From Escherichia phage Bp4, in sequence record NC_024142.2: a stretch of 64,000 nt of DNA; one strand, given 5' to 3'. The translations under genes and the position numbers were made by a program. Below the pieces are notes generated by a model. The model saw only the letters and a list, made by a program, of their open reading frames with translations, was not told the origin of the DNA and ran no database searches. Positions within the stretch are counted from its first letter, which is position 1. Every line of letters begins with the position of its first letter. Positions 16,355 through 51,479 of the stretch are shown piece after piece.

Positions 16355-19300
16355 TTGAACAGGAAACATGCTATGTCAACATTTGACCGTCTGGCAGGTT
16401 TCGCAGACAGCATCACTAATGCTAAGCAAGTCGATGTCTCTACTGCAACCTCTCAGAAGCAAGCTGCACAAGGGCAAAGCCCTTTCCAATTAACCCCAGA
16501 GAATGCTTACAATCTCCAGACTGGACGAGTAGGTAATCTTGGAATCGGTGCATTCGAACCAGGTTCACTTCAGGCAGATTTCACTCAAGCCTCCCCATTA
16601 GAAATCATTAATAAGTACGGTAATGAGCAAGGTTTACAAATTCTTAATAGCCGAGCTAATGCTGCTGATGTTGTACGTCAGGACTTATCTAAACAACGTA
16701 CTAACGCAGAAGCATTTGGCGATACTCTTTCTGGTGTTGGTCTTGGTGTTGCTAATACCCTTGGGGGCATTGCTGCTCTTGGTACAGGCTTGGTCAATGA
16801 TAATGCCGGGGCATCCATTGCTTCCGGTCTTGACTGGTTGAATAAAGGTGTACACAACCTACAGTCTGATGCACTGAATGCTCGTCGTAATGTAGTACAG
16901 AACCAGAACGTAATATCTGCTCAAGAGAATGAGAAACTCTATAAGCAAGATATTGCTAAAGGAGAAAGTGAACTCGTTGCTTCTCTGTCTCGTATTGGAC
17001 GAGATGCCTATGATTCTGTTGCTAACACCCTGTCTAATGACATGGCTGCTACAGATGGCCTGGCTGAAGGTGTTGGTTCATTCTTTACTGGCGGTCCACT
17101 TATCCGTGGTGTATCTGCACTTGGTAAAGTAATGGTAGGTGGTGATAAAGCTGTTAAGGGTATTACCTTAGCTGCTGAATTAGGTTATCGTCCTGCACGT
17201 ATTGCACAGACTGCTGGTCGTGTTGCTGCACCTGCTATAGCAATTGGTGGTATGGAAGCTGGTGGTGCATACCAACAGACTGCTAATGAAATTATGGAAA
17301 TGCCATTCAGTGAACTGGCTGCTAAATCTCCTGTATACCAACAGCATATTAAAGACGGTCTGTCTCCTGAAGAAGCACGTCGCCAGACTGCATCTGAAAC
17401 AGGTATCACTGCTGCTGGCTTAACTGCTCCAGTTGCTGCTCTTACTGCTCCACTGGTATCCAAGTTTGAACTTAACCCACTTAAGGTAGGTTCACTGGCT
17501 GGTGCTGGTTCTAACATGCTGCGTGAGACTGTAGAAGAAGGTATCCAGTCTGGTACAAGTCAGTTTGCACAAAACAAGGCAATTCAGGGCAATGTAGATG
17601 CTGAGCGTGATTTGCTTAAAGGTGTGGGTGAACAAACTGGTCTGGGTGCATTGTATGGCTTCGGTTCTGCTGGAGTTGCTCAAGCTCCTGGTGCAACTGT
17701 TAAGGCTGCTGGTGCTGCCGTTGGTCCTGCTGTACGTACTACCCTGGCTGGTGCTTCTTTGGCTGGTAAGGCACTAGCAAAAGTAGCTTCACCTATTACT
17801 AACATCCTGGTTCAACGTGGGGAAGAAGTTGCTAAGCGTAATGAACAAGCATCCCCCGTATCTGATGCTACGGTTAACGCTGCTGCACAAGAAGCTACTG
17901 CTCAGGCAGAACAAGCTCAAGCAACTGTTCAGGAAGCAGTGGATGCAATGGATATTTCTCCAGAAGAGAAAGCTGCTGCTACCCAGTATGCTGCTGACTT
18001 AACTCAGGCAATGAAGTTTGACCCGGTAGAATTGGAACAAACTAACCCAGCAATCCGTGAAGCTGTTTCTGGTTCCACTAACCGTGTAGAAGCTATTCAG
18101 AAGATGGCTGACTTGGTTAATACTGCCGAAGACCCTAACGTTCAAATGGAAGCTGCAATCCAGATGTATGACAATATCATGTCTATGGATAGCTTCATTA
18201 ACCGTGACCCGGGTGCTTTGGCTAATCTGGAACAAGGTTCCCCTGCTGCTGCAATCGTAGACCAATTCTCCGGCCTGATGGCTAACGTACAGAATACCCC
18301 TAAAGTACTCCGTGCATTTCGTGCCATCCATTCCATGATTCAGGAACAGGCTGAAGCGGGTAAGCTGAAAGCTACTGAAGAAGCTAATCAAGCCCAAGCA
18401 AACAACATTGCTATGGCTGCTGATGTATCTCCAGAAGTGCTGGATGCAGATTCAGTGAACATGGTTCTGAAACATGCAAGTGAAGGTAAGATTACACTGG
18501 GGAATCGTCAACGTGCTGCCCTGCAATCTGCTGCTGCCTTATTACAGGGTGCACGAGAGTTCGACGCTAAAGCAGAAGAACTAGGCTTACGTCCTCAAGA
18601 TATTGTTAGTAAACAGATTAAAACCGATGAGTCTCGTTCTAATGAAGGACAGTACTCTGCGTTGCAACATGCGAAACGCATTCGTTCTGCGTATAACTCT
18701 GGTAACTTCGATTTGGCCTCCGCTTATCTGAGCGATTTTATGAAGTTCGCCCAGCACATGCAGAATAAGGTCGGAGCGTTGAATGAGCATCTGATTTCGG
18801 GGAATGCGGATAAGAATAAGTCTGTTCATTATCAGGCTCTCTCGCCTTCCCGTGAATGGGTACGTAGTCGTACTGGCCTCGGTGTCAATCCTTACGATAC
18901 CAAGTCTGTTAAGTTTGCCCAGCAAGTAGCACTGGAAGCTAAGACCGTAGCTGACATTGCTAACGCACTTGCTACGGCTTACCCGGAGCTTAATGTTTCT
19001 CATGTGAAAGTTACCTCGTTGGATTCACGTCTGAACAAGCCAGCTGCCCAGGTAGTTAAAGAGTTCCGTCAAGGTGGTCTTGATGCCACTCAGTCTCAAC
19101 AGACTAATGAACCAGTGAATCAGGTTGATGAAACTCCTGCACTAGTGCAAGAGGACACCACTACTGTACAGCCTAAAGATAAACTAGTGGTAGAAAATAA
19201 GACTGCTCCTACTAAAGAGACTAGTCCAAAAGCAGAAGAAGTCTCTACTACTGAATCTGAAAGAGATGCTTATGTGAAAGAAAATACTATTTCACAGGAA

Positions 19301-22300
19301 ATTCTTAATAAGAATGGTGACCGTAGAGAAAGCCCTTGGTTGTTTGCTGATGGTACTGTGGTTGGTTCTAATGGCGACCATATCAGCCTGTCCGACGTAT
19401 TTGGGCATGATGGTTATCGTGATATGTCTCTGGATACTGGTGCTATTCGCTCTACCTTCTATAAAGGTAGTGAGCAACCATTTGTATCTCTGCAACTGTT
19501 TGATAATCAGAAACTGACTGCTGAACAATTCAATACTGTTCAATCTTTCGTTGAAGCAAACAATGCACTGATTCAGGTTGGTGTAGATACGTCTGGGCGT
19601 AATACCAATAATGTTGAGAAGGAAGAAGTATCACTAGCTCAACTGAAAGCAGACTATACCGTCGGTGGTAAACCTCTATCGGAAATGGAAACAGTGTTCC
19701 CTGTTTATAACAATGACAAGACACCGAACCAGTTCATTAAATCATTCTCTCTTCCAGAAGAACCTAAGTCTCGTACCATTGGTTCCGAATCTCCTTTGAC
19801 TGATGTTAAGAAAGCACTGTCTTCTGCTGCTCGCTTTGAAGCATTTACTCAAAAAGAAAATAACGCTCTCACAAGTGATGTGATTAAGCGTTACCAGGAC
19901 TTATTTGAGTTTGGTGAAACTCTGAAGACTACTCTGTCTGACCGTCTGGCTAAGTTCCTTGCTAACAAGAACGTTGGTAAACGTTTTGCGGAAGGTACTG
20001 AGGCTAACCGTTGGGTAGGTGGTAAGTTACTTAACATCGTAGAGAAAGATGGTGACACCTTTAAGTTCAATGACCAGCTATTAGAAACTGCTGTACTTGC
20101 TGGTCTGCAATGGCGATTGACTGCTACACAGAATGCTGCTGTTAAAGACATGAAAGACGTAGCTGCTATTACTGGTGTGGAAGCATCTCTGCTACCAGAA
20201 GGTATTCTGGCTGACTTCGAGAATGCTCAGACCCTGGTTGAAGCTACTAACTCACTAGCTCAAAAGATTGAATCCTATTGGGGTTTGAATCGTAATCCTA
20301 ATGCACCTTTGGGGTATACCAAGGGTATCCCAATGGCAATGGCTACAGAGATTCTGTCTTCCCTTATTGAGATGGGTGAAGTTAAAGAGTCCATGTTAGA
20401 TGTGTCTGAGATTGACCCAGAATCTAATAAGACTGTTGGTCTGTATACCATTGAGAAGCTGGATGATAACGATGCCATTAATAAATTCCCTACTGCTATT
20501 GAGGAAACTGTCCTTTTAGAACCAGTAGAGAAATTGTATCTGGGTGATGACATTCCTTCCGTGGCTCAAACTCAGTTACGTAACCCGGCTGTTAAGAATA
20601 CCCCGGAACAGAAAGCTGCTCTCAAAGCAGAACAAGCTACTGAGTTTCGTGTACATATGCCGATGGTTAATTTCTATGAAGCATTGGGTCGTGACAACAT
20701 TCTGGAGTTAATGGGTGCTGGTGCTCTTAATCCAGAATTGCTGAATGTGAATACTGCTAAGTCTCTGGAAGGTAAAAACCTGTCCGTGTCCATGGCGTAT
20801 GATTCCTTGTTTGGTGTAATCAATCAAATTAAGGAACAGGAGAATGGACTGGATACACCTATTCACTATGGCTACAACATGACCCGTGTAGGTCGTATGC
20901 AGATGCTTGGTAAGAACAACCCACAGTCCAGCAAACTGGTACGTGAAGCAATCTTACCAACCTTCTCTACCATCGACTTGAGTAATGAAAACAGTCAAAC
21001 GTTCTCTGACTTCCAGTTAGGTCTGGCTCAGGCATTGGGCATCAAAGTTCATAAAATGTCCCGTGAAGTTATGTCGGATGAGCTGACTAAAGCTCTGGAA
21101 GGTAAATTGAAACCTGCCGTTGATATGATGGTCGAGTTTGATAAGTCTGGTCACTTACCTGCTGATGCAGTGGATATTCTGAAGACTTCCTTGGGGAATG
21201 ATAAATCATTCGTAGCTCTTATGGCCCTGATGGAATATGCCCGTTACCTGAATAGTGATGATCGTGCCAACTTTAATACCCCACTGTACGTTGAAGCCGA
21301 TGGTGTAACCAATGGACCAATTAACGCAATGGTATTAATGACTGGTGGTAAGTTTACTTCAGACTGGATTAAGAATACTGCTAAGGGTGGTTTGTTCTTT
21401 GGTAAAGCTGGCAAGACTATGAACGAACACCATTCGCACGAGGATAGTGTTGACCTGTATGAAGCATCCACTAATAGTCTGCAACAGGCACTGAATGAAT
21501 TACGTAATAATTACCGTAACAACGTTCCTGTTACGAATCAGATGAAGCATCTTCAGAAGTTAATGGACCTGTTCATTAAAGACTTCAATCTTAATGAAGA
21601 TGGTACTCTGGACCTGAAACGTGGTATCGCTAAAAACCCACTGACCATTACCATCTATGGTTCTGGTGCTCGTGGTATTGCTGGCAAAATGGTAAGTGCA
21701 ATTACTGATACCATCTACGAACGCTTCAGTGACGTTCTACAAGCCCGTGCTGCTGACCCTAGCATTTCCCCAGCTATGGCTATGTTTGGTAAGGAGGCTG
21801 CGTCTGAGGCTGATGCTCAGGCTATGCTGGATACTTTCCTTACTTCTATGGAAGCACTAACTGGTAATGTTCCGGTTATGCGTAAAGGTGAGTTGTCTAT
21901 TCAGCAGGTAGATGGTGCTCTGACTGGTAAGTTAGACCCTCAGAAGTTTACTGTATCCGGTAATGCTCTGAAGAACTTACAAGAGAACATGCTTCATCTG
22001 TTCGTTGAACCAATGCGTACTGGTATCCGAAATACCGTGGGTGAAGGTCTGATGTACTCTACTGAGAACTTGCAGAAAGCTACCCAGATTCAATCTCTGG
22101 TTCTGCAAGACATGTTCCAGCAACGTGTTCAGGAGAAACTGGCAGAAAAAGAAAAAGACCCAACATGGAAGAAGGGTGATTTCTTAACACAGAAAGAACT
22201 GAATGAAATCCAGGCTTCATTATCTCCACTGGCTCCAATGATTGAGACTGGTTCACAGACTTTCTACATTGCTGGTAGTGAGAATACTGATGTTGCTAAC

Positions 22301-25300
22301 CAAGTATTGGCTACCAACTTAGATGACCGTATGCGTGTGCCAATGAGCATCTATGCTCCTTCACAGGCAGGTGTAGCAGGTATTCCATTTATGACCATCG
22401 GTACAGGTGATGGCATGATGATGCAGACCCTTTCTACTATGAAAGGTGCTCCGAAGAATACCCTGAAAATCTTTGATGGTATGAACATTGGTATTAATGA
22501 CATTACTGATGCAAGCCGTAAAGCTAATGAGGCTGTATATACTTCCTGGCAGGGTAACCCTATCAAGAATGTTTATGACTCCTTTGCTAAGTTCATGAAG
22601 AACGTAGACTTCAGCAAACTGTCTGATGAAACCAAACAAGCTATCGCTAAATCTGCACTGGAATACGACCAACGTGAGGGTGCTACTGATGACCTGTTAC
22701 GTGTTGGTGCTGAACAGATTGAACGTAATCTGCGTAACATTGCTCTGGGTGTGGATATTCGTCATAAGGTAATGGACCAGGTACAGGTCACTGTTGACCA
22801 GATGGCTGCTGTTGGTGCTCCTTATGTGAACAACGGTAAAATCTCTCTGGAAGGTCTGACTGTAGACCAGCAAGTAGCTAAGCTGAACGAACTGTTTGAT
22901 GCTGAATTAAACAAGCGTCGTGATGCAGTACGTGCTGCTAAAGCAGAACCAGTGAAAGAAGTGCCAGCAATGGAACAGGTCGGTCGTGTACTGAAGTCTG
23001 GTGTACGTCTGCTGTCTAATGCTGCCATTACTAAACTGGCTAAAGAGATGTCCCCTGAACAACAAGCAGTACTGAAAGAAATACAGAAATCTCTTGCTGC
23101 TAAAGACTATAAGGTTGTTTATGGTACGCCTTCTCAACTGGATGCCTATGCTATTGAGAAGAACATTACTCGTCCAGCACCGGAAGATATTGAAGCTGCT
23201 GAAGCAGGTAATGCATATGGCTGGACTAACTTTGAAGATAAAACCATCTACTTAGTTACCCCTTCCTTAGAGACTCTGGTTCATGAATTGGTACATGCCT
23301 CTACTTTTGAATCTGTACTAGCTCACTACGAGGGTACTCCTAACGAAGCAGTCCAGAATATTGAAGACCTGATGAACCAGTTCCGTGCTCTTGATGTTAA
23401 GAATGAATCTCCGGCAGTACGTGAAGCATATGCCGATGCACTCAATACCATTAATGGCCACTTGTCCAATGGCTTTATTGAACCAGCAATGGCTAAAGCT
23501 GCTGCACTGAATGAGTACATGGCTTGGGGTTTAACTAACCGTGAACTTATAAGTAAGCAGAAGAAAACCACTGCACTTAAAACTATGGTTCAGGCTGTAT
23601 ATGAAGCAATCAAACGTCTGGTATTCGGACGTAAGAAAGCTCCTGCTAATGCAGATGATATGTTCTCTGGCTTACTGTTTAACTCTGCTGTAGTAATGCG
23701 TGGGCAGGCTCCTACTGCTGCTGTAGCCAAAGATACTACCTTGTTCCATAACAAAGCATACGGTGACAATACTCGTCTGGAAGAGCTAGGGAAAACCTTC
23801 GATAAGCTGATTACTAACTACATTGGTTCAGAACCAGTACAGCAAGTAATTCGTAAAGGTAAGTTCTCTGATGCAGTAGTAAAAGCAACTAAAGTAACTC
23901 GTGATGTTCAGGCTCATGGCTTCACCATGAATATGCAGGAACAGCGTCTCTTCACTAACATTGTTGCTGCACTAGCTACTGAGGCTGCTATTAACCCTGC
24001 TGCTATGGCTCGTGCACAGGAATACTACACGCATGTTACTAAGAACCTGACTGTTGAAGCGTTCATGGCTGACCCGGATAGTACTAACCCTGCTGACCGT
24101 TACTATGCACAGCAGAAGTTCGATACCATCATGGGTGCTAATAACATTGAGTTTGATGCACAGGGTCGTTCTTCCTTACTACCTACCTTTGTTGGTCTGG
24201 TAATGGTAAGTGAAGAAGTACGTAAGGTGCTGGCTGATATTTCTGTTATGAAAGCAGATAAAAAATCTGGCAATACTGTTGATGCAATGCTGACTAACAT
24301 CGGTACTGCTGCAATGGCTAGTCTGAATGCTCGTGTAGCAGGTGATACTAAAGCCACTAACGTACAGGAAGGTATGGATGCACTGGCTCAGACAATCATG
24401 CAGACCAGTCTTAACGCAGAATCCTTCTATGATTCCGTTGCTACTCCTACCGGTAATGCTATCGACCGTGCTAACCAGTATTTGGTGGACTCTATTGATG
24501 CATTGTCTACCCGTGCTTTAGAAGGTGCTCGTGAAGTTGCAGCTAATACCAAGAATCCATTGGTCAAAGGTGCTGCTCATGCTGCACAACTGGTAGCTGC
24601 TATTGCTACAGAGAAGAATGGTGCAATCGTAGCCGAAGGTGTTATGGCTGCAATGAACCAGGGTAAAGTATGGCAACCTTTCCATGACCTGGTTAATGAC
24701 ATAATTGGACGTACTAAGAGCAATGCTTCTGTATATGATTTGATTAAAGCAGTACGAGCACAAGTGCAGGCTGACCGTCAACAGTTCCGTGAACACTTGC
24801 CTACCACTATCGCATCCAAGTTCAGCCGTAAACTGACTAATGATGAGTGGAAAGCAATGCATACCGGTATGGGTAAAACTGACTTAGCTGTTCTGCGTGA
24901 CACTATGTCTTTGGATGAAATCCGTGACCTGCTGACTGACCAGAAGAATGTTGACCGTGAGGTTAATAAACTGGAAGCAGATTTGCAGAAACAAGCAGGA
25001 CGTAACTGGCCCCTGATTAACCGTAAATCTAAGCAACTGGCTCAGTATATGATTAACGGTACAGTCGGTAATAACCTGCTGCGTAATGCTACTGCAATTT
25101 CTCGTTTACTGGGTGAACGTAAGACTACACGTTCTGTTGTAGATGTAGCTCAGCTGGATAAACTGATTACCCTGTATGCACTGGAAGCAATGAGTAAGAC
25201 TGACCGTGAGGTGTTATCTTCACTGGCTCAGACAGAAGTTGAAGGCATGGACTTTGCTACTTCTTACCTGGTTGGTCAGCGTAAAGACGAAATGGCTAAA

Positions 25301-27085
25301 GCCAAGTCTGATAGCCGTGCAACCTTGAACCAGTACAAAGGATACATCCCAACTGAGAACAAACAGGGTGTTAACCTGATTGTTGCTGAAGATAATCAGT
25401 TTGCTGATTTGATTGAGAAATCCTATGTACGTCTTGGTACTTATCAGGGTAGCTCTGCTAACCGGGGTCCAGCACGTAGTTACTACTTTGCACCGGTACA
25501 GGCACAGGCTCCGTTCTCACAAGGTATCCTACAGAACGTTCGAAATACTGCTGGTGGTGTAGACCTTGGTACAGGCTTTACGATGGGAACCATGGTAGCT
25601 GGTCGTATTACTGACAAGCCTTCCGTAGACCGTATCACTAAAGCACTGGCTCGTGGTGAACGTGGCAATGAACCACTGCTGCCTGTATATGATGCTAATG
25701 GTAATGTAGTTGCTTATGAGCAATCTATTGACCCTAACATGCTGAAGCACATTGAGGGTGAGAATCATCTTGCTCGTGCAATCGGTGTATGGCGTGGTCG
25801 TCAGGTGGAAGAAGCTAAGGCTCAGCGTTTCAACGATATGCTAATTGAGAACCTGCATAGCATGTATGAGAACGACATTAAGATGTCTGCTTCTAATAAG
25901 TCCCAGTACGTTAACCTTCTTGGTTCTAAACTGGACCCAGTAACTGCCGATGCCCTTAAGCTGATGAACAGTGAAACTCGTCAGAAAGCAGAAAGTCTCT
26001 TTGGTCCAGGTGAATTGTGGGTGCGTCGTGACATGCTTAATGATGCTCTGGGTTATCGTGCAGCTTCTGTAGGAGATGCCTGGTCTGGTAATTCTCGTTG
26101 GTCACCAGAAACACTGGATACCTTCAAGAAAGCTATGTTGGGTGTATTCGGCAACCGTGCCTATAAGTATGTAATGGGTGGTGAGAACCTGGTTCAGAAC
26201 TTAGTTAAAGAAGCTAAGACCCTGATTGTAGTTAAGTCAGTAGTTGTACCTGCTGTTAACTTCCTGGCTAACCTTTACCAGATGGTTGCTCGTGGTGTAC
26301 CTGTTAAGAACATTGCTAAGAGCATCCCACAAAAAACTGCTGAGATTAACCAGTATCTGAAATCTCGTCTGCGTCAGGTAGATGCAGAAGCAGAATTACG
26401 TGCAGCTACTAACCCGAACCAGATTCGTAAACTCAAGGCTGAGATTCAGTCCATCTCTGATAGCCATAAACGTTTGAGTATCTGGCCTCTGTTGGAAGCT
26501 GGTGAGTTCTCTTCAATTGCAGATGCTGGTATTGGCCGTGATGACATCCTGATTACTGAAGGTAAACTCCACGAATACATGGAAAAGCTGGCTGATAAGC
26601 TGCCTAAGTCTGTTCGTAACGCAGGTCGCTATGCACTTATCACTAAGGATACTGCTCTCTTCCAGGGTATTCAGAAGACGGTTGAGTACTCTGACTTTAT
26701 TGCTAAAGCAATCATCTATGATGAACTGACTCAGCGTAAAGGTAAGACTCGTGAAGAAGCACTGGGGCGTGTAACGGAAGAGTTCATTAACTATGACCGT
26801 CTGCCTGGTCGATTCCGTGGGTATATGGAAAGTGTTGGTTTGATGTGGTTCTACAACTTTAAGATTCGTTCTGCAAAAGTTGCAGTGTCCATGATTCGTA
26901 ATAACCCAGTACATGCTGCTATGGCTATGTTGGCTCCAACCCCTACCATGTTTGGTAACGTTGGTCTTCCTATTCAGGACAACATCTTTAGTATTGCTGC
27001 ACAAGGCAATCTTGGTTACTCCTTTGGTTTCGGTCAAGGCTTACGTGCCCACAACCTGAACCCTTGGCTCAACCTTACTAACTAA
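16355..27085 (+). CDS. giant virion-encapsidated RNA polymerase (N4 gp50-like vRNAP)
   Basis: Single uninterrupted 3576-aa ORF (10.7 kb). This size is a hallmark of N4-like phages. Last gene of the late operon, followed by a strong terminator. Confidence 0.85.
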   Translation: MNRKHAMSTFDRLAGFADSITNAKQVDVSTATSQKQAAQGQSPFQLTPENAYNLQTGRVGNLGIGAFEPGSLQADFTQASPLEIINKYGNEQGLQILNSRANAADVVRQDLSKQRTNAEAFGDTLSGVGLGVANTLGGIAALGTGLVNDNAGASIASGLDWLNKGVHNLQSDALNARRNVVQNQNVISAQENEKLYKQDIAKGESELVASLSRIGRDAYDSVANTLSNDMAATDGLAEGVGSFFTGGPLIRGVSALGKVMVGGDKAVKGITLAAELGYRPARIAQTAGRVAAPAIAIGGMEAGGAYQQTANEIMEMPFSELAAKSPVYQQHIKDGLSPEEARRQTASETGITAAGLTAPVAALTAPLVSKFELNPLKVGSLAGAGSNMLRETVEEGIQSGTSQFAQNKAIQGNVDAERDLLKGVGEQTGLGALYGFGSAGVAQAPGATVKAAGAAVGPAVRTTLAGASLAGKALAKVASPITNILVQRGEEVAKRNEQASPVSDATVNAAAQEATAQAEQAQATVQEAVDAMDISPEEKAAATQYAADLTQAMKFDPVELEQTNPAIREAVSGSTNRVEAIQKMADLVNTAEDPNVQMEAAIQMYDNIMSMDSFINRDPGALANLEQGSPAAAIVDQFSGLMANVQNTPKVLRAFRAIHSMIQEQAEAGKLKATEEANQAQANNIAMAADVSPEVLDADSVNMVLKHASEGKITLGNRQRAALQSAAALLQGAREFDAKAEELGLRPQDIVSKQIKTDESRSNEGQYSALQHAKRIRSAYNSGNFDLASAYLSDFMKFAQHMQNKVGALNEHLISGNADKNKSVHYQALSPSREWVRSRTGLGVNPYDTKSVKFAQQVALEAKTVADIANALATAYPELNVSHVKVTSLDSRLNKPAAQVVKEFRQGGLDATQSQQTNEPVNQVDETPALVQEDTTTVQPKDKLVVENKTAPTKETSPKAEEVSTTESERDAYVKENTISQEILNKNGDRRESPWLFADGTVVGSNGDHISLSDVFGHDGYRDMSLDTGAIRSTFYKGSEQPFVSLQLFDNQKLTAEQFNTVQSFVEANNALIQVGVDTSGRNTNNVEKEEVSLAQLKADYTVGGKPLSEMETVFPVYNNDKTPNQFIKSFSLPEEPKSRTIGSESPLTDVKKALSSAARFEAFTQKENNALTSDVIKRYQDLFEFGETLKTTLSDRLAKFLANKNVGKRFAEGTEANRWVGGKLLNIVEKDGDTFKFNDQLLETAVLAGLQWRLTATQNAAVKDMKDVAAITGVEASLLPEGILADFENAQTLVEATNSLAQKIESYWGLNRNPNAPLGYTKGIPMAMATEILSSLIEMGEVKESMLDVSEIDPESNKTVGLYTIEKLDDNDAINKFPTAIEETVLLEPVEKLYLGDDIPSVAQTQLRNPAVKNTPEQKAALKAEQATEFRVHMPMVNFYEALGRDNILELMGAGALNPELLNVNTAKSLEGKNLSVSMAYDSLFGVINQIKEQENGLDTPIHYGYNMTRVGRMQMLGKNNPQSSKLVREAILPTFSTIDLSNENSQTFSDFQLGLAQALGIKVHKMSREVMSDELTKALEGKLKPAVDMMVEFDKSGHLPADAVDILKTSLGNDKSFVALMALMEYARYLNSDDRANFNTPLYVEADGVTNGPINAMVLMTGGKFTSDWIKNTAKGGLFFGKAGKTMNEHHSHEDSVDLYEASTNSLQQALNELRNNYRNNVPVTNQMKHLQKLMDLFIKDFNLNEDGTLDLKRGIAKNPLTITIYGSGARGIAGKMVSAITDTIYERFSDVLQARAADPSISPAMAMFGKEAASEADAQAMLDTFLTSMEALTGNVPVMRKGELSIQQVDGALTGKLDPQKFTVSGNALKNLQENMLHLFVEPMRTGIRNTVGEGLMYSTENLQKATQIQSLVLQDMFQQRVQEKLAEKEKDPTWKKGDFLTQKELNEIQASLSPLAPMIETGSQTFYIAGSENTDVANQVLATNLDDRMRVPMSIYAPSQAGVAGIPFMTIGTGDGMMMQTLSTMKGAPKNTLKIFDGMNIGINDITDASRKANEAVYTSWQGNPIKNVYDSFAKFMKNVDFSKLSDETKQAIAKSALEYDQREGATDDLLRVGAEQIERNLRNIALGVDIRHKVMDQVQVTVDQMAAVGAPYVNNGKISLEGLTVDQQVAKLNELFDAELNKRRDAVRAAKAEPVKEVPAMEQVGRVLKSGVRLLSNAAITKLAKEMSPEQQAVLKEIQKSLAAKDYKVVYGTPSQLDAYAIEKNITRPAPEDIEAAEAGNAYGWTNFEDKTIYLVTPSLETLVHELVHASTFESVLAHYEGTPNEAVQNIEDLMNQFRALDVKNESPAVREAYADALNTINGHLSNGFIEPAMAKAAALNEYMAWGLTNRELISKQKKTTALKTMVQAVYEAIKRLVFGRKKAPANADDMFSGLLFNSAVVMRGQAPTAAVAKDTTLFHNKAYGDNTRLEELGKTFDKLITNYIGSEPVQQVIRKGKFSDAVVKATKVTRDVQAHGFTMNMQEQRLFTNIVAALATEAAINPAAMARAQEYYTHVTKNLTVEAFMADPDSTNPADRYYAQQKFDTIMGANNIEFDAQGRSSLLPTFVGLVMVSEEVRKVLADISVMKADKKSGNTVDAMLTNIGTAAMASLNARVAGDTKATNVQEGMDALAQTIMQTSLNAESFYDSVATPTGNAIDRANQYLVDSIDALSTRALEGAREVAANTKNPLVKGAAHAAQLVAAIATEKNGAIVAEGVMAAMNQGKVWQPFHDLVNDIIGRTKSNASVYDLIKAVRAQVQADRQQFREHLPTTIASKFSRKLTNDEWKAMHTGMGKTDLAVLRDTMSLDEIRDLLTDQKNVDREVNKLEADLQKQAGRNWPLINRKSKQLAQYMINGTVGNNLLRNATAISRLLGERKTTRSVVDVAQLDKLITLYALEAMSKTDREVLSSLAQTEVEGMDFATSYLVGQRKDEMAKAKSDSRATLNQYKGYIPTENKQGVNLIVAEDNQFADLIEKSYVRLGTYQGSSANRGPARSYYFAPVQAQAPFSQGILQNVRNTAGGVDLGTGFTMGTMVAGRITDKPSVDRITKALARGERGNEPLLPVYDANGNVVAYEQSIDPNMLKHIEGENHLARAIGVWRGRQVEEAKAQRFNDMLIENLHSMYENDIKMSASNKSQYVNLLGSKLDPVTADALKLMNSETRQKAESLFGPGELWVRRDMLNDALGYRAASVGDAWSGNSRWSPETLDTFKKAMLGVFGNRAYKYVMGGENLVQNLVKEAKTLIVVKSVVVPAVNFLANLYQMVARGVPVKNIAKSIPQKTAEINQYLKSRLRQVDAEAELRAATNPNQIRKLKAEIQSISDSHKRLSIWPLLEAGEFSSIADAGIGRDDILITEGKLHEYMEKLADKLPKSVRNAGRYALITKDTALFQGIQKTVEYSDFIAKAIIYDELTQRKGKTREEALGRVTEEFINYDRLPGRFRGYMESVGLMWFYNFKIRSAKVAVSMIRNNPVHAAMAMLAPTPTMFGNVGLPIQDNIFSIAAQGNLGYSFGFGQGLRAHNLNPWLNLTN

Positions 27086-27092
27086 ATGAAAA

Positions 27093-27120
27093 AGCCCCTC
27101 TAATGAGGGGCTTTTATTTT
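27093..27120. terminator. bidirectional intrinsic terminator after vRNAP
   Basis: Hairpin AGCCCCTC-TAAT-GAGGGGCT followed by TTTTATTTT; lies between convergent genes. Confidence 0.6.
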
Positions 27121-27638
27121 TACTGAGCTAACACCCAATCTTCTGCTAATACATCTGATTGAGATGGAACCCATGGCATAAACTGGTTATCAACGGTTTT
27201 AATACCCAGCCAATCCCGTTTCTCACAAACGGTATTTTCATGTTTATCCATGGCCCAATTTTCACCAGATACTAAGGTGATATACATTCCTTTTCCGTTC
27301 CAACCTTTACGGGTCATTCTAAAGCCTGATTTGAGAATCTCTACTGCATGACCAAAGGTACAACCTTTTTCTACGTCACGGTATGCAGCTTCGAATGTAG
27401 CTTTAGGTGACCAGCTAATATAGCCACGGAATTGGGGATGGTTGGACTTAGAGTCTGGATACTCGACTAAGTAGCCTTCTTCTAGCGGGTCTTCATCTGC
27501 TGGTACATCCCAACCACGAAGTTTGCAGTATGTTTCTTTGCTCATCGGGAAACCATTTACACACTTGGTTCCAATGTAGTTGGTGAAATGGACTTTAATT
27601 TCTTCTGACATAACTACCTCAAATGAGAAAGCCCTCAC
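27120..27638 (-). CDS. hypothetical protein with DUF2829-like motifs (candidate Tad2-like anti-defence protein)
   Basis: 172-aa ORF. Motifs RKGWNGKGMYITL and C-terminal WVPSQSDVLAEDWVL resemble DUF2829 as recalled; unverified. Confidence 0.45.
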   Translation of the reverse strand: MRAFSFEVVMSEEIKVHFTNYIGTKCVNGFPMSKETYCKLRGWDVPADEDPLEEGYLVEYPDSKSNHPQFRGYISWSPKATFEAAYRDVEKGCTFGHAVEILKSGFRMTRKGWNGKGMYITLVSGENWAMDKHENTVCEKRDWLGIKTVDNQFMPWVPSQSDVLAEDWVLAQ

Positions 27639-27729: not shown

Positions 27730-28122
27730 TCAAATTGTACAACCACCACCATCACAGGTATTGTTTTCTGCAAAGGAAGCCAAAGCTTTAGCAGTCTCTT
27801 CCTTCTCATGCAGTGCCTGACGTAGTAGGTAGCCCTCTAATTCCCAAATCTTATTGAATGCATTTTCATATGCATACTGGCGACCTAACTGCTCATCATA
27901 GATAGTTGGGTCTACGCAAGCAGATACACCTTCAACTTTAAAATTGTTTTCCAGAATGATAACACAATAGGTTACCAGACCCAGGTTAGCCAAATCATCT
28001 GCCGGGAGTGCAGAAGGATCAACGAATGCAGATTTCACTGCATCAGCACCATTAAAATAGTAAACGCTCTTAATCTTAGCTTCGATTGCTTCTTTACTTA
28101 CTGTTGCCATTATTAGCCTCAT
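27730..28122 (-). CDS. hypothetical protein
   Basis: 130-aa ORF; likely start ATG at 28110 preceded by GAGG. Confidence 0.45.
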   Translation of the reverse strand: MRLIMATVSKEAIEAKIKSVYYFNGADAVKSAFVDPSALPADDLANLGLVTYCVIILENNFKVEGVSACVDPTIYDEQLGRQYAYENAFNKIWELEGYLLRQALHEKEETAKALASFAENNTCDGGGCTI

Positions 28123-28170: not shown

Positions 28171-28198
28171 AAATAAAAAAGTCCCTCCGAAGAGGGAC
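28171..28198 (-). terminator. intrinsic terminator downstream of tRNA region (minus-strand sense)
   Basis: Hairpin GTCCCTC-CGAA-GAGGGAC followed on the minus strand by TTTTTTATTT. Confidence 0.55.
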
Positions 28199-28426
28199 TT
28201 AGTAGCTTTAACGCAGCTAACGAGGCTAGGCCAGTTAACTATTACCACCGGTGCTTGTACCAGCAAACAGGATTGATAGTCCGATAATAGTTAACTGTAA
28301 TTGAGCATTATAGTCTGCTCATACTCACACCGTTAGGTATGTTTTCAATAATTAGAGTGCCGGACTGTCTCACCGGCATTGTCTTTAGAGTGCAATGCAA
28401 TCAGGACTATGTTCTCTATTAATAAG

Positions 28427-28500
28427 TACCCACTACTGGATTTGAACCAGTGACCTTCCGATTATTAGTCGGTTGCTTTCCCCGTCTAAGCTAAGTGGGC
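28427..28500 (-). tRNA. tRNA with apparent anticodon AAU (Ile-like), 74 nt, CCA not encoded
   Basis: Hand-folded cloverleaf on minus strand: acceptor GCCCACU/AGUGGGU, D-stem GCUU/AAGC, anticodon stem ACCGA/UCGGA with loop CUAAUAA, T-stem ACUGG/CCAGU with loop UUCAAAU. Confidence 0.55.
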
Positions 28501-28945
28501 ATAAATGAGTGAGTCATGCCAGACTTTAACTGGCTCCTTCTTCGCAATCCTTACATACCCCTACATAATTATTGCGTTAAGCTTATATTGTTTAAGTTTA
28601 AGTGAAGGCGTTCTTGCTGACTCATAATAGGGTGGGCGTTTGACGAATGACTAGTTCGTTACTACCCGTTTGCCATAAGTACCTGGCGACTTTGGTTTGA
28701 GGCGGGAGTCCGAGTCCTGTACAGCCTTACCGTTCACACATTGGCAGCGTATCTAGAATAGCACTTCCGGCAACTGGATTTAACTGTTACACCCCAAATC
28801 TGGTAGGGGCGTCCAGAAGTCTCATCTGGTACTTACGCCGTCGTATGGTTACGACTTACCCCCATAATCTTTCTAATTCAAAGTAGCACTGCTCCATGTT
28901 TGGCCTTTGAACTCCGGGATGGATTAGTGCAATGCTACTTTGAAT

Positions 28946-29137
28946 TGGTTACCAGTGAGGGATTCGAACCCCCGGTTGGAGTCTATAGCTTACCGCAGCA
29001 GCTCTCCAATCTAGCGGTGTCACACTTAGTCCAAACTTGAACATATCAAGCTATCTCGTGCAACTGATAATTGGTTCCGGCGTCTGGACTCGAACCAGAA
29101 CACTTATGCCGTGCACGACACTAGTACCTACACCGGA
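28946..29137 (-). other. tandem tRNA-like elements that do not fold into a canonical cloverleaf by hand
   Basis: Minus-strand T-arms GGGGG-UUCGAAU-CCCUC and UCUGG-UUCGAGU-CCAGA, each followed by acceptor 3' strand, discriminator A and encoded CCA; matching 5' acceptor strands lie at non-canonical distances (about 124 and 66 nt). Confidence 0.3.
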
Positions 29138-29204
29138 ATTAATTGCCAGGGATTCCACCTGGTCCATCTGTTTTTATAGTCACTCAGATATCGTCTGGAC
29201 TGTA

Positions 29205-29282
29205 GGCATGGGTGGGAATCGAACCCACAAACCATTCAGCACTGTAGCCTCACGCTCTACCTATTTGAGCTATCACACACCA
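29205..29282 (-). other. tRNA-like element (good T-arm and D-arm, imperfect acceptor and anticodon stems)
   Basis: Minus strand: D-arm GCUC-AAAUAGGUA-GAGC and T-arm GUGGG-UUCGAUU-CCCAC; acceptor pairs 6 of 7; anticodon stem pairs poorly. Confidence 0.3.
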
Positions 29283-29572
29283 TTGATTAACTCCCCGTTT
29301 CTAATACACGGACGAGGACACTCCATGGTCGTTTGATAATCAGGACGACTCACTCCCGACTGACGCTTGGCTTATTAGGCTGCCATCAGAACAACATCAT
29401 CGTTTGCATTTATGTTATTGGTTCGTTTCTAAAAAACCGCATAATCGCTTACGAAAACTATCAAAGAGTACACTAAGCACAGGTAGCTACCCTGCCGTCT
29501 TCTCCACCTACACCGGCTACAGTGTAAACCTCCGCACGTTAGCTTAATGTACTCATTGATAGGATGTCAGTA

Positions 29573-29642
29573 GGTCGGGGGCTGGATTCGAACCAGCGAG
29601 AGAAGTAGCGACCATCTGCACATGCCTACGTGCTACCTCGAC
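29573..29642 (-). other. tRNA-like element (about 70 nt, short anticodon region)
   Basis: Minus strand: acceptor GUCGAGG/CCCCGAC (6 of 7), D-arm GCAC-GUAGGCAU-GUGC, T-arm GCUGG-UUCGAAU-CCAGC; anticodon/variable region 2-3 nt shorter than canonical. Confidence 0.3.
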
Positions 29643-30027
29643 CATTATAATAGGAGGGAGGGGACGAGTCCTCCCTTTATACCCTATATTGCATGTAAGA
29701 CCTAACAATTCGATGCTGTAGGTAGCTATGCTATCCGACATTTAACCCAGCCATATAGGGCTTATGTGATTAAAATGCTCAACATTGAGCGGTTAGTTTG
29801 ATAAGGGATCTGAAGCCTTATCCCAAAGATACTAACCTTTGGGATATAGCCTATCATTCAGAAATGGCCCCTATAGGGAGAGGCCATTGATTAACCCGAA
29901 TGTTGCTTTACATTTTCTGTGATAACCCATTCTTAAAATAGTTTACCTGACGGATGGGGGCCACCCCTAGCGTCAGTGCCATACGGCAAAGATTAAGTTA
30001 AGAAAGGTTATGATAGGAGTTCCTATC

Positions 30028-33110: not shown

Positions 33111-35003
33111 TTATTTGCCAGCGAAGCGTTTAGCCACGGTGACCATTACGGTTGCATTCAATTCATCATCTGGTAATGGATTAGCCAGTTTCTTATTGAA
33201 TGAGTGGACGGCTTGCTGTACTTGGGCAAAATCCCAACCACTGTCAACCAATGCCAGTGCGTACTTAATCATTTGATTATTACGATTACCGGTAGCAATA
33301 CGACTAGCGAACCAACGCTCCAGATTATCCAACGACTGTACTTCCTTCATCTGGTTCTGGAACTGCTCGTTCTTACTAGTACGAGGAATAAAGTCACGCA
33401 CGTCCAACAGATTTGCTTCAAGATTGTAATGATAGGAACCAGTCTCACAGGACATCCATTTCTTGGCTCGCTGGTTAGCAGATTCATCCGTTTCGAACGG
33501 TAGCCAAGACATAACGTTATTCATAAACTCTTTGTATTCCTCAGTGTCGAGGTGTAACTCATAGTTCATTGGAATAATCAGTCGGAAGCGGTTCTCTTCA
33601 TCAGAATGACGTTTAGTGGTATAGGTCATGAACTTATATTCCTTCATCAGTTCATGGCACGTATGCAGTGGTACTCCACCATCACAGTCAATAACAATCA
33701 TGTTAAATCCTGGAATAACGTTCTCTTCAGAACGATGTCCATTCTTCATGTGATGGTTTACCCAGTGCATACCGGGAGCTTGGGTTAATACATGCAACTG
33801 GTCGAACGGTACACGTTCACCAATGTAGTCATAAGCAAAGCTATCACTATATGCCACTATCATCTCATTGATGTCAGTTTCTTTCAGAGTCTCACCACGG
33901 AAGAACTCAATACCTTCATTAAAAGTCTTCTTAATGATGATGTGCTGTTTGTAGCCCCATGCTGTAGCAAGAGTCATCATCTCATTACGAGCTGCATTGC
34001 CACTCTTATAGAATGGCAATGACTCCACCAAGTCAGCATGAGTTACTTCTTTACCTACAGAAGCAATGTATTTAGCCAGCTTCACATAAGCCTTCTCACG
34101 ATTGAGGATTGTCTGGAATGCTGCTCCAGATTCTTCTACAAGCAGAATTGCTTGTTTAAGGTGAGTCATCTCAATGAATGAACTCTGGTCAACAAACGCC
34201 AGTGCTCCTGCCAGTTTAAGTGCTTTGAAATAACGGTGGGAAATTTCAGCTTTACGAATTTCTTCGTGGTCAGCCATAGCTTCTGCTTGTTTCTCACAAT
34301 CAATTTTGTAAGCAATCAGAGCAATACCCACTGCATCTTCCACAACCATCTTAAAACCAAACAGGTTTGGATCAGCCAGACTATGGAAATGGTTAGCCCA
34401 CTTACCAAGAGTCTGTACGTTATCTTGTTTAATCAAGTTACGGTAGATTTCTTCCGGGGTTAGTGTTGCATGTGCTCTTTTGTCTAAGTGACCAGTGGCA
34501 AACAGACAGCGACGTGCATACCCTATATCAAGAAAGCCATAGAACTGGTCTTCAGTCTGACCACCATCCAGTAGCTTACTTGGTGTACCAAACAGCAGCA
34601 GGTTAGTTGGAGTTTTGCCATCCAATTCTTCACCACGAACGCTTTCAGCAGTATTCTTGGTTAGCTTCTGTTTTACTTTTCCCTGGTCATATAACTCCAG
34701 GAACAGGGTTAGTACATCCATGTTAGCCAACAGGTTCGAACCAATTTCATCAATCTGAAGATTGATTGAACCACATCCAGCCATTAATAGTTTATGGCGT
34801 AGTTGTTTAACTGCTGGTGGAGTACCTGAGTCAAACGTAAACGGATATGCCCCTGCACGTTTATACTCTGCCTCAACTTTATCAAACTCTTCCTGCTGGT
34901 CAGTACCCTGCCGTGCAGAGCGTTCGTTAGCAATCTTCCATAGACGATCATTTGCAATGACGGGCATGGTGTCTTCCATAAAGCGTTTACGGAAGCCAGT
35001 CAT
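33111..35003 (-). CDS. putative DNA primase / primase-polymerase-like protein
   Basis: 630 aa; acidic motif VIDCDGG; position between ATPase and nuclease genes resembles the N4 primase locus. Confidence 0.4.
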   Translation of the reverse strand: MTGFRKRFMEDTMPVIANDRLWKIANERSARQGTDQQEEFDKVEAEYKRAGAYPFTFDSGTPPAVKQLRHKLLMAGCGSINLQIDEIGSNLLANMDVLTLFLELYDQGKVKQKLTKNTAESVRGEELDGKTPTNLLLFGTPSKLLDGGQTEDQFYGFLDIGYARRCLFATGHLDKRAHATLTPEEIYRNLIKQDNVQTLGKWANHFHSLADPNLFGFKMVVEDAVGIALIAYKIDCEKQAEAMADHEEIRKAEISHRYFKALKLAGALAFVDQSSFIEMTHLKQAILLVEESGAAFQTILNREKAYVKLAKYIASVGKEVTHADLVESLPFYKSGNAARNEMMTLATAWGYKQHIIIKKTFNEGIEFFRGETLKETDINEMIVAYSDSFAYDYIGERVPFDQLHVLTQAPGMHWVNHHMKNGHRSEENVIPGFNMIVIDCDGGVPLHTCHELMKEYKFMTYTTKRHSDEENRFRLIIPMNYELHLDTEEYKEFMNNVMSWLPFETDESANQRAKKWMSCETGSYHYNLEANLLDVRDFIPRTSKNEQFQNQMKEVQSLDNLERWFASRIATGNRNNQMIKYALALVDSGWDFAQVQQAVHSFNKKLANPLPDDELNATVMVTVAKRFAGK

Positions 35004-50972: not shown

Positions 50973-51479
50973 TTATTTACTGCTTCTTGCAGCTACTGGT
51001 TTGTTTTCCTGGTTCTGATACTTGCCATTGTAATTAGCAGGTTCCTGAACCAGATGAAATAATACTTGAGCTATCCCAGAACCAGCCGGGATATGCAGTT
51101 TCTTACGACCGTGATAGACAAGTTCGAGGGTAAGATACCCTTTCCATCCTGGTTCTATTACGGTATTGAACACAGATAATGCACGTCTTGCCCAGGTAGA
51201 CTTATCGTGAACGATGGCTACACAGGAAGGAGACATGTTGAACTTCTCAATTGCTGAAGCCAATGTGAACTTACCGAGATGGCGTGATACTTGATTTCCA
51301 TCAACGACTTTCACCATTGGAATCAACCCAAATAAGCGATAGAAGGTAATATCTTGTTTGATACGAATATCATAACCAGCTTCACCCAATCCATAGCTTA
51401 CACCATGCTCGGATACCTTACGGTCTGGGACATCCAGCAACTGAGATGAACGATAAAGAGAATTACCATTAACAACCAT
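50973..51479 (-). CDS. dCTP deaminase / dUTPase-family protein
   Basis: Motifs VSYGLGEAGYDIRI and PAGSGIAQV resemble the dCTP deaminase/dUTPase fold; 168 aa. Confidence 0.5.
   Translation of the reverse strand: MVVNGNSLYRSSQLLDVPDRKVSEHGVSYGLGEAGYDIRIKQDITFYRLFGLIPMVKVVDGNQVSRHLGKFTLASAIEKFNMSPSCVAIVHDKSTWARRALSVFNTVIEPGWKGYLTLELVYHGRKKLHIPAGSGIAQVLFHLVQEPANYNGKYQNQENKPVAARSSK

Follow-up and report, generated by a model that had tools for sequence, protein, structure and literature searches.

Wobble adenosine in bacterial and phage tRNAs

The eukaryotic tRNA-Ile, in which the anticodon AAU is edited to IAU, and the bacterial tRNA-Arg, in which ACG is edited to ICG, have in common with the phage tRNA that is the subject of this article an encoded A34 within a loop of the type C32-U33-A34...A37-A38. 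These tRNAs, edited by ADAT2/3 or TadA, differ from the phage tRNA in that the anticodon of the latter is not of the ANG type accepted by E. coli TadA (PMC11066159). Outside tRNA-Arg(ACG), A34 is rare in bacteria, as the sequence-only reading that is followed up here had maintained: non-ACG ANN tRNA genes make up 695 of about 246,000 bacterial tRNA genes (preprint 10.64898/2026.05.15.725136). Why bacteria have almost no anticodons that start with A is still a puzzle, and in a 2026 preprint such tRNAs were built artificially in E. coli in order to study it.

Schmitt, Tittle & Fisk (2024; PMC11066159) placed 15 ANN anticodons into a C32-U33-NNN-A37-A38 loop, which is identical to that of the phage tRNA, and expressed the resulting tRNAs in E. 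coli. Inosine was found only with the anticodons ACG, AUG and AAG and, at a detection limit of about 5%, not with AAU; decoding by the AAU anticodon amounted to 4.5% for AUU, 0.43% for AUC, a roughly tenfold difference, and 0.27% for AUG, and was below detection for AUA. Over-expression of an Ile-tRNA(AAU) led to a higher growth rate and yield of E. coli (Raval et al., 2026, preprint), modification of the tRNA not being measured there. For the Phe-tRNA(AAA) of a two-codon box, however, A-to-I conversion in E. coli was inferred in the same preprint, which indicates that the specificity of TadA may be looser than found in the 2024 study. The engineered ANN tRNAs of both studies resemble the phage tRNA in that AAU was used in the same loop context and in the same host species, where it was tolerated or mildly beneficial and AUU-selective. 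They differ in that they were either built on an archaeal tyrosine tRNA body or obtained as G34A mutants of host genes, whereas the phage tRNA is natural and conserved and has what appears to be an Ile2-type body. Coliphages with a conserved tRNA-Ile(AAU) provide a natural test case in the same host.

As an object, the phage gene is already known from GenBank records and from one paper. It was annotated in 2012 in ECBP1, where the tRNA and the flanking sequence match at 100% identity, as tRNA-Ile (R0002), and it is found as "tRNA-Ile-AAT" in SP5M, as "tRNA-Ile(aat)" in KKP 3715 and as "tRNA-Xle" in Uz-1 and PhAPEC7; in PD38, the closest genome, the gene is present and unannotated. The paper lists tRNA-Ile-AAT for the UE phages (UE-S5a/b, UE-M3/M6) and invokes only generic codon compensation (PMC11927229). 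A literature search for a discussion of phage tRNA-Ile(AAU) returned a bare listing and tool citations only, and no comment on A34 itself. The annotated Gamaleyavirus tRNA-Ile genes (ECBP1, SP5M, KKP 3715, UE phages) are the same gene at the same locus with no structural difference, but the records and the paper are silent on the A34 anticodon, its origin and its decoding. What the present analysis adds is the probable ancestry from tRNA-Ile2 (CAU), the independent recurrence of AAU in other phage lineages, and the link to the E. coli experiments, which predicts an unedited, AUU-specific reader.

The tRNA-Ile(AAU) gene

The window that was analysed is a stretch of 64,000 nucleotides from Escherichia phage Bp4 (NC_024142.2), a coliphage of the N4-like type that belongs to Gamaleyavirus (Schitoviridae). 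Two features are considered here:

28427..28500, minus strand: tRNA-Ile(AAU) gene, 74 nt (ARAGORN, Rfam RF00005, homologue pair counts)
28462..28468, minus strand: anticodon loop CUAAUAA (direct reading and Infernal alignment)

A canonical tRNA with the anticodon AAU had been proposed for this position from the letters alone; its coordinates are right, and the gene lies on the minus strand, which had been left unstated. ARAGORN calls a tRNA-Ile(aat) at 28426-28500(-). Infernal aligns the sequence with the full length of Rfam model RF00005 (positions 1-71 of 71) at 64.8 bits, compared with a gathering score of 29, and with an E value of 8e-12; the covariance-model fold has the same AAU anticodon, and the posterior probability is high across the anticodon arm. 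The two programs agree on the loop CUAAUAA and on the anticodon, which corresponds to 28464-28466 of the plus strand. The loop has seven nucleotides (C32 U33 A34 A35 U36 A37 A38), with U33 and a purine at position 37.

Written as RNA, the 5' half is GCCCACU UA GCUU AGACGGGGA AAGC A ACCGA CUAAUAA UCGGA, and the 3' half continues with AGGUC ACUGG UUCAAAU CCAGU AGUGGGU A. The acceptor stem has 7 bp (with G1.U72 in this phage), the D stem 4 bp, the anticodon stem 4 bp plus A27.A43, and the T stem 5 bp closing the loop TTCAAAT. Apart from the mismatch A27.A43, which tops the anticodon stem, the cloverleaf is regular. No CCA is encoded, the gene ending with ...GTGGGTA followed by CTT, and we infer that the CCA end is added by the host enzyme.

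Conservation among relatives

Between 27600 and 30400 the window shares 99.8% identity with Escherichia phage PD38 and 98.7% with ECBP1. When the homologous region was taken from 16 relatives, the tRNA was present in 14, every time with the anticodon aat. Mean column identity is 97% within the tRNA, and the identity of the flanks goes down to about 85%. In the 13 distinct homologues 95.2% of the pair cells are standard, every stem substitution keeps pairing, and compensatory double changes are seen at three pairs (2-71 U-A/C-G, 29-41 C-G/U-A and 30-40 G-C/A-U), in a sample of close relatives whose statistical power is modest; slid-register controls gave 16-46% pairing and zero double changes. 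All seven bases of the anticodon loop are invariant across these 13 distinct sequences, which come from independently sequenced relatives. A scan of IMG/VR for the same tRNA body with any nucleotide at position 34 yielded six contigs, all six with A34, and a CAU or GAU version of the exact body was not found in IMG/VR. The invariant loop and the compensatory changes in the stems make both a sequencing error and a decaying pseudogene unlikely. An alternative fold was likewise rejected, the two independent tRNA finders being in agreement.

The neighbourhood of the gene is common to 212 records, a subset of which has a match to the tRNA. In HK2, pSb-1 and Bas96 the site equivalent to 28427-28500 is occupied by a non-canonical element:

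HK2 1531-1615; pSb-1; Bas96 34329-34413: 85-nt replacement elements at the homologous site

The 85-nt element shares its T arm with tRNA-Ile(AAU) and also its acceptor stem, in which the variation is compensatory. Its D arm is more canonical, and the anticodon arm is swapped for a sequence that is about 11 nt longer and has no canonical anticodon loop. In Bas96 the element is annotated as tRNA-Val; ARAGORN makes no call unless an intron is allowed, in which case a Pro(agg) is forced. The tRNA-Ile(AAU) gene is accessory and dispensable within the genus.

Relationship to tRNA-Ile2

In a comparison with 5,426 E. coli genomes, the best matches to the phage tRNA were tRNA-Ile genes with a CAT anticodon that lie in lambdoid prophages beside a tRNA-Arg(tct). 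The identity is 79% to the prophage copy and 76% to ileX (CAU) of strain K-12; ileT (GAU) is 72% identical and has a far lower alignment score. Nucleotide 34 is the sole difference between the anticodon stem-loop CGACUAAUAAUCG of the phage and the Ile2-type stem-loop CGACUCAUAAUCG, as is apparent from the arm core CGACU-A-AUAAUCG, where it alone departs from the Ile2 type. The T arm CUGGUUCAAAUCCAG is identical to that of the prophage tRNA-Ile copies, and the 27-43 pair is weak or mismatched both in the phage tRNA and in Ile2-type genes. From these likenesses, within a molecule of 74 nt, we infer that the phage tRNA has the body of a tRNA-Ile2 (CAU, lysidine type) in which C34 was changed to A.

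The phage tRNA and tRNA-Ile2 (ileX and the ileZ-type genes of lambdoid prophages) have C4-G69, U12-A23, C29-G41 and A73 in common. They differ in position 34, which is A in the phage tRNA and C in tRNA-Ile2, where it is the lysidine site of the CAU anticodon. With A34 in place of C34 there can be no lysidine, and the phage tRNA should not be a substrate of MetRS and should read AUU rather than AUA. Because of A34 it is filed here as a derivative of the Ile2 family and not as a member of it.

Recurrence of the AAU anticodon in other phages

A scan of IMG/VR with a loop-plus-T-arm pattern gave at least 120 matches. Among the matches listed, ARAGORN called tRNA-Ile(aat) in at least 45 loci, which form 28 sequence clusters. 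Four of the six known Gamaleyavirus contigs were among the first 120 matches listed, and a rough capture estimate suggests that there are fewer than ~200 pattern matches in IMG/VR, roughly 40% of them true tRNA-Ile(aat). Several of the AAU clusters are giant-virus contigs, in which an AAU tRNA of the eukaryotic type is unsurprising; in many others, which are phage contigs, it is the only tRNA. The by-catch of the scan, again among the matches listed, included 264 tRNAs with three-base anticodons, and only 4 of these have a non-ACG A34, which indicates that A34 is rare in viral tRNAs generally and that the isoleucine case stands out somewhat.

A tRNA-Ile(AAU), here with an encoded CCA, was also found in 99 records of Skatevirus/seszw-type siphophages of Salmonella and E. 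coli. Its anticodon arm has the same core, CCGA-CUAAUAA-UCGG, again with a mismatched 27-43 pair, and, as in Gamaleyavirus, it is the only tRNA of phages with enterobacterial hosts. The Skatevirus/seszw-type phages differ, however, in belonging to an unrelated lineage, and their tRNA differs in its acceptor, D and T arms and in the encoded CCA. Another AAU tRNA, from IMG/VR contigs (L060), agrees fully in its acceptor, D and T arms with a tRNA annotated as Met(cat) in the P22-like Proteus phage Brookers, and thus shows a switch between CAU and AAU in orthologues. Since the switch from CAU to AAU recurs in phages that are unrelated, selection seems a likelier cause than accident.

A different starting point is conceivable as well. 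The tRNA-Ile(AAU) at 545-621(-) of a further IMG/VR contig (L139), AGGTCTGTAGCTTAGTTGGTTAGAGCGCATCCCTAATAAGGATGAAATCGGTGGTTCGAGTCCACTCAGACCTACCA, resembles by eye ileT (GAU) of E. coli and not Ile2; G34A on a body of the Ile1 type may thus be a further route to AAU.

Charging, editing and decoding

The identity set of E. coli IleRS reportedly comprises A35, U36, (t6)A37, A38, A73, C4-G69, U12-A23 and C29-G41. By direct reading, all of these are present in the phage tRNA, and in the homologue alignment they are invariant except for C29-G41, which is U-A in one phage. The wobble base A34 is unlike that of both host isoleucine isoacceptors, which have G34 or lysidine-34.

The only deaminase encoded in the window is a dCTP deaminase of the dUTPase fold (DCD) at 50973-51479. 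A TadA-like or CDA-fold deaminase was not found in the window by phmmer and tblastn with E. coli TadA as the query, or by the motif H/C-A-E...PCxxC. Neither the ORFs nor the annotation of the complete Bas96 genome, through which alone the last ~8 kb of the phage genome beyond the window were covered, revealed a TadA/CDA motif or such an enzyme. A tRNA deaminase encoded by the phage was rejected on these grounds. With an anticodon outside the ANG type and no deaminase for it found, editing is not expected. The claim of the sequence-only reading that A34 would imply A-to-I editing is not supported, considering both these searches and the finding that AAU is unmodified in E. coli tests (PMC11066159). 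Its alternative, unusual decoding, survives in a mild sense only, namely that unmodified A34 makes a near-AUU-specific reader.

Isoleucine codon usage

The shares of the three isoleucine codons are as follows:

This phage, all ORFs: ATT 59%, ATC 28%, ATA 13%
This phage, late genes: ATT 67%, ATC 24%, ATA 9%
This phage, early/middle genes: ATT 55%, ATC 31%, ATA 14%
15-gene K-12 sample: ATT 46%, ATC 48%, ATA 6%
Bas96 (without the canonical tRNA): ATT 57%, ATC 30%, ATA 13%

ATT is the fourth most used of all codons in this phage, and a comparison of the late genes, which had been proposed together with the AAU reading, shows that AUU rises from 59% of the isoleucine codons overall to 67% of those in late genes. 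This codon use fits a tRNA-Ile(AAU) that reads AUU. It should be noted, however, that Bas96 has the same isoleucine codon usage without the canonical tRNA; any benefit in codon supply must therefore be modest, and codon usage is not shaped by it. A strong co-adaptation is not supported, and codon usage was dropped as a discriminator. Classical codon compensation would favour a reader of AUA, contrary to the AAU that is found: the share of ATA is about twice that of the host sample (13% versus about 6%), and yet the change from CAU to AAU gives up the reading of AUA.

Genomic neighbourhood

The gene is the last element of an ORF-poor RNA island at the end of the block of genes on the early/middle strand. 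The ORF of the virion RNA polymerase (3576 aa) is at 16355-27085. The elements of the region around the tRNA are:

28501..29750, minus strand: ORF-poor RNA island that immediately precedes the tRNA, which it shares its strand with
29572-29643, minus strand: tRNA-Ala(cgc) as called by ARAGORN
29202-29280, minus strand: tRNA-Cys(aca) as called by ARAGORN, a second A34 anticodon, directly following a tmRNA-like block
28179..28200, minus strand: intrinsic-terminator-like hairpin AAGTCCCTCTTCGGAGGGACTT with T run (consensus scan), ~230 nt downstream of the tRNA
27730-28122, minus strand: gene of the N4 gp49 / Sf6 gp66 family (Pfam PF13876, 90 bits)
27120..27638, minus strand: gene with a Tad2-like (Thoeris anti-defence 2-like) domain (Pfam PF11195, 82 bits)

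With respect to transcription, the island is preceded by the gene of an SSB-like protein and by small ORFs. The island itself holds degenerate tRNA-like pieces and the tmRNA-like tag element, and is mosaic between relatives. The hairpin at 28179..28200 came from a scan that found 9 terminator-like sites where 2.0 are expected, and the records of PhAPEC5 and PhAPEC7 have annotated terminators at the corresponding position; the transcript with the RNA island probably ends at this hairpin. The Tad2-like gene lies two ORFs downstream of the tRNA and is labelled DUF2829, "anti-CRISPR" or Tad2-like in relatives.

The elements called tRNA-Cys(aca) and tRNA-Ala(cgc) had to be considered as further unusual tRNAs and were rejected as such for want of Rfam tRNA support: neither matches RF00005 even at an E value of 10, and the Ala(cgc) element scores 26 bits as tRNA-Sec, compared with a gathering score of 47. 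In the ECBP1 record the Cys(aca) element is labelled "tRNA-Pseudo-ACA"; other records and papers give real Cys or Ala tRNAs. Both elements look like degenerate tRNA-like pieces.

Two more pieces, in both of which the T arm is canonical and an ACCA end is encoded, were read by eye. One, of about 70 nt at ~29066-29137(-), has the sequence UCCGGUG...UCUGG UUCGAGU CCAGA CGCCGGA ACCA and has not the length that a full cloverleaf requires; the other, of about 125 nt at ~28945-29069(-), reads UAUCAGU...GGGGG UUCGAAU CCCUC ACUGGUA ACCA. Neither is called by ARAGORN or Rfam. Modules ending with ...ACCAAUU appear shuffled in relatives.

Function of tRNA-Ile(AAU)

We consider it rather probable that the gene encodes a functional accessory tRNA-Ile, derived from Ile2 by the change of C34 to A34, that is unmodified and near-AUU-specific and supplements the GAU tRNA of the host. 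The tRNA would be transcribed during infection, trimmed, and provided with its CCA end by the host enzyme. As it keeps the set of E. coli isoleucine identity elements, it would be charged by the IleRS of the host, and A34 would stay unmodified in E. coli, because E. coli TadA needs an anticodon of the ANG type. With A34 unmodified, the tRNA would be a Watson-Crick reader of AUU, with minor reading of AUC and essentially none of AUA. It would thereby supplement host tRNA-Ile(GAU), which reads AUU only by G.U wobble, and the target of the supplementation would be AUU as the most used isoleucine codon of the phage. Unlike its CAU ancestor, it should need no modification by host TilS for its isoleucine identity. 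As a gene, it is ordinary, already annotated and dispensable in the genus, and the likeliest mechanism is unexciting.

A34 might instead be deaminated to inosine, whether by host TadA acting promiscuously or by some enzyme that escaped recognition. This would yield a eukaryote-like tRNA-Ile(IAU) able to read AUU, AUC and AUA, to replace both host isoacceptors and to bypass TilS. Natural A34 is almost always converted to I; C32, U33, A37 and A38 are kept in the loop, as in tRNA-Arg2; the phage, whose tRNA probably descended from an AUA reader, uses ATA twice as much as the host sample; and the I34 inferred for Phe-tRNA(AAA) in the preprint suggests that TadA is flexible. We nevertheless regard inosine formation as unlikely, since AAU was without inosine and did not read AUA when tested directly in E. 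coli (PMC11066159), and since neither the window nor the complete genome of a relative encodes a CDA-fold deaminase. Quite unlikely, in our opinion, is the broader proposition that phages repeatedly turn tRNA-Ile2 (CAU) into AAU and that I34, or superwobble favoured by the unpaired 27-43 position, extends the reading to AUA. The "extended superwobble" ascribed to a 4-bp anticodon stem (PMC13092985) concerns C34 tRNAs and is for A34 speculation only. If such reading were true, one tRNA, independent of TilS, would serve all codons of the isoleucine box, ANN tRNAs would be natural and selectable, and phages would tolerate or exploit a mode of decoding that their hosts avoid.

The tRNA could also act mainly as a device of counter-defence or host takeover instead of in codon supply, either as a tRNA-Ile that, having neither G34 nor lysidine-34, escapes an anticodon-loop nuclease or a modification-dependent attack, or as a tRNA-shaped decoy among the other tRNA-like RNAs of the island. 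The evasion of anticodon nucleases by phage tRNAs is a known principle, the gene is part of a mosaic island of tRNA-like RNAs that adjoins a Tad2-like anti-defence gene, solo AAU tRNAs recur in unrelated phages, and some relatives have swapped the anticodon domain and kept the acceptor and T arms, as if shape mattered more than decoding. Ordinary decoding, however, is favoured by a canonical 7-nt loop that never varies and by an IleRS identity set that is complete. In a mosaic region, moreover, the proximity of Tad2 says little, and a defence nuclease directed at tRNA-Ile is not known to us, which also counts against such a role; we therefore hold it to be decidedly improbable. Least credible of all is a neutral relic, that is, a horizontally acquired tRNA-Ile2 that was disabled by C34A and is decaying like its tRNA-like neighbours. 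It would agree with the neighbouring "tRNA-Cys(aca)" and "tRNA-Ala(cgc)" being sub-threshold pseudo-tRNAs, with the absence or replacement of the gene in part of the genus, and with codon usage that is equal with and without it. It does not agree with the contrast between flanks of ~85% and a tRNA of 97% mean column identity, with stem pairing that is always kept, three pairs having changed doubly, or with the maintenance of the AAU state in 99 Skatevirus-type records. The accessory, AUU-reading tRNA is the explanation that we prefer.

A tmRNA-like tag element upstream of the tRNA

The non-coding stretch adjacent to the tRNA gene holds, to judge by its sequence, an unannotated tmRNA-like tag element that is common to phage P1 and many enterobacterial phages. 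This putative element may deserve attention of its own more than the tRNA-Ile(AAU). Its parts in the window are:

29290-29475, minus strand: tmRNA-like conserved block, ~190 nt, upstream of tRNA-Ile(AAU)
29407-29375, minus strand: tag reading frame GCAAACGAUGAUGUUGUUCUGAUGGCAGCCUAAUAA, encoding ANDDVVLMAA, then two stops

The SsrA tag of E. coli is ANDENYALAA. The codons of the phage frame are GCA AAC GAU GAU GUU GUU CUG AUG GCA GCC UAA UAA, and the peptides predicted for relatives and for unrelated phages are:

Window, ECBP1, Uz-1, PBM-3: ANDDVVLMAA
IME11 (synonymous changes only): ANDDVVLMAA
E20, phiG17, Mimir124, KKP 3715, PhAPEC5: ANEEAYLMVA
Phage P1: ANDDLMMVAA
Serratia phage 3M: ANDNAFLMAA

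Across these phages the frame and the stop are kept, and the SsrA-like peptides differ. On the 3' side of the tag there is a covarying helix (CAGGA/UCCUG, GGGG/CCCC, GAGGG/CCCUU), the loop of which can pair downstream to form a predicted pseudoknot. Rfam tmRNA_permuted scores the block at 33.4 bits, below the gathering score of 47 (E 3.5e-4), and standard tmRNA finders make no call for it (ARAGORN run on the window; PMC4131195). An alanine-accepting tRNA-like domain was sought around the block, and none was identified there.

In a census of 2014, mycobacteriophages were the only RefSeq phages in which ssrA was found (PMC4131195), and a literature search for tmRNA in N4-like phages returned only a bare listing and tool citations. 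By blastn the block was found in 313 phage records from widely differing families, which include N4-like, P1-like, SSU5-like, Vi1-like and T1-like phages, and among the matches listed it is almost always unannotated. P1 and 3M carry further motifs of the GGAAGCC type after the block.
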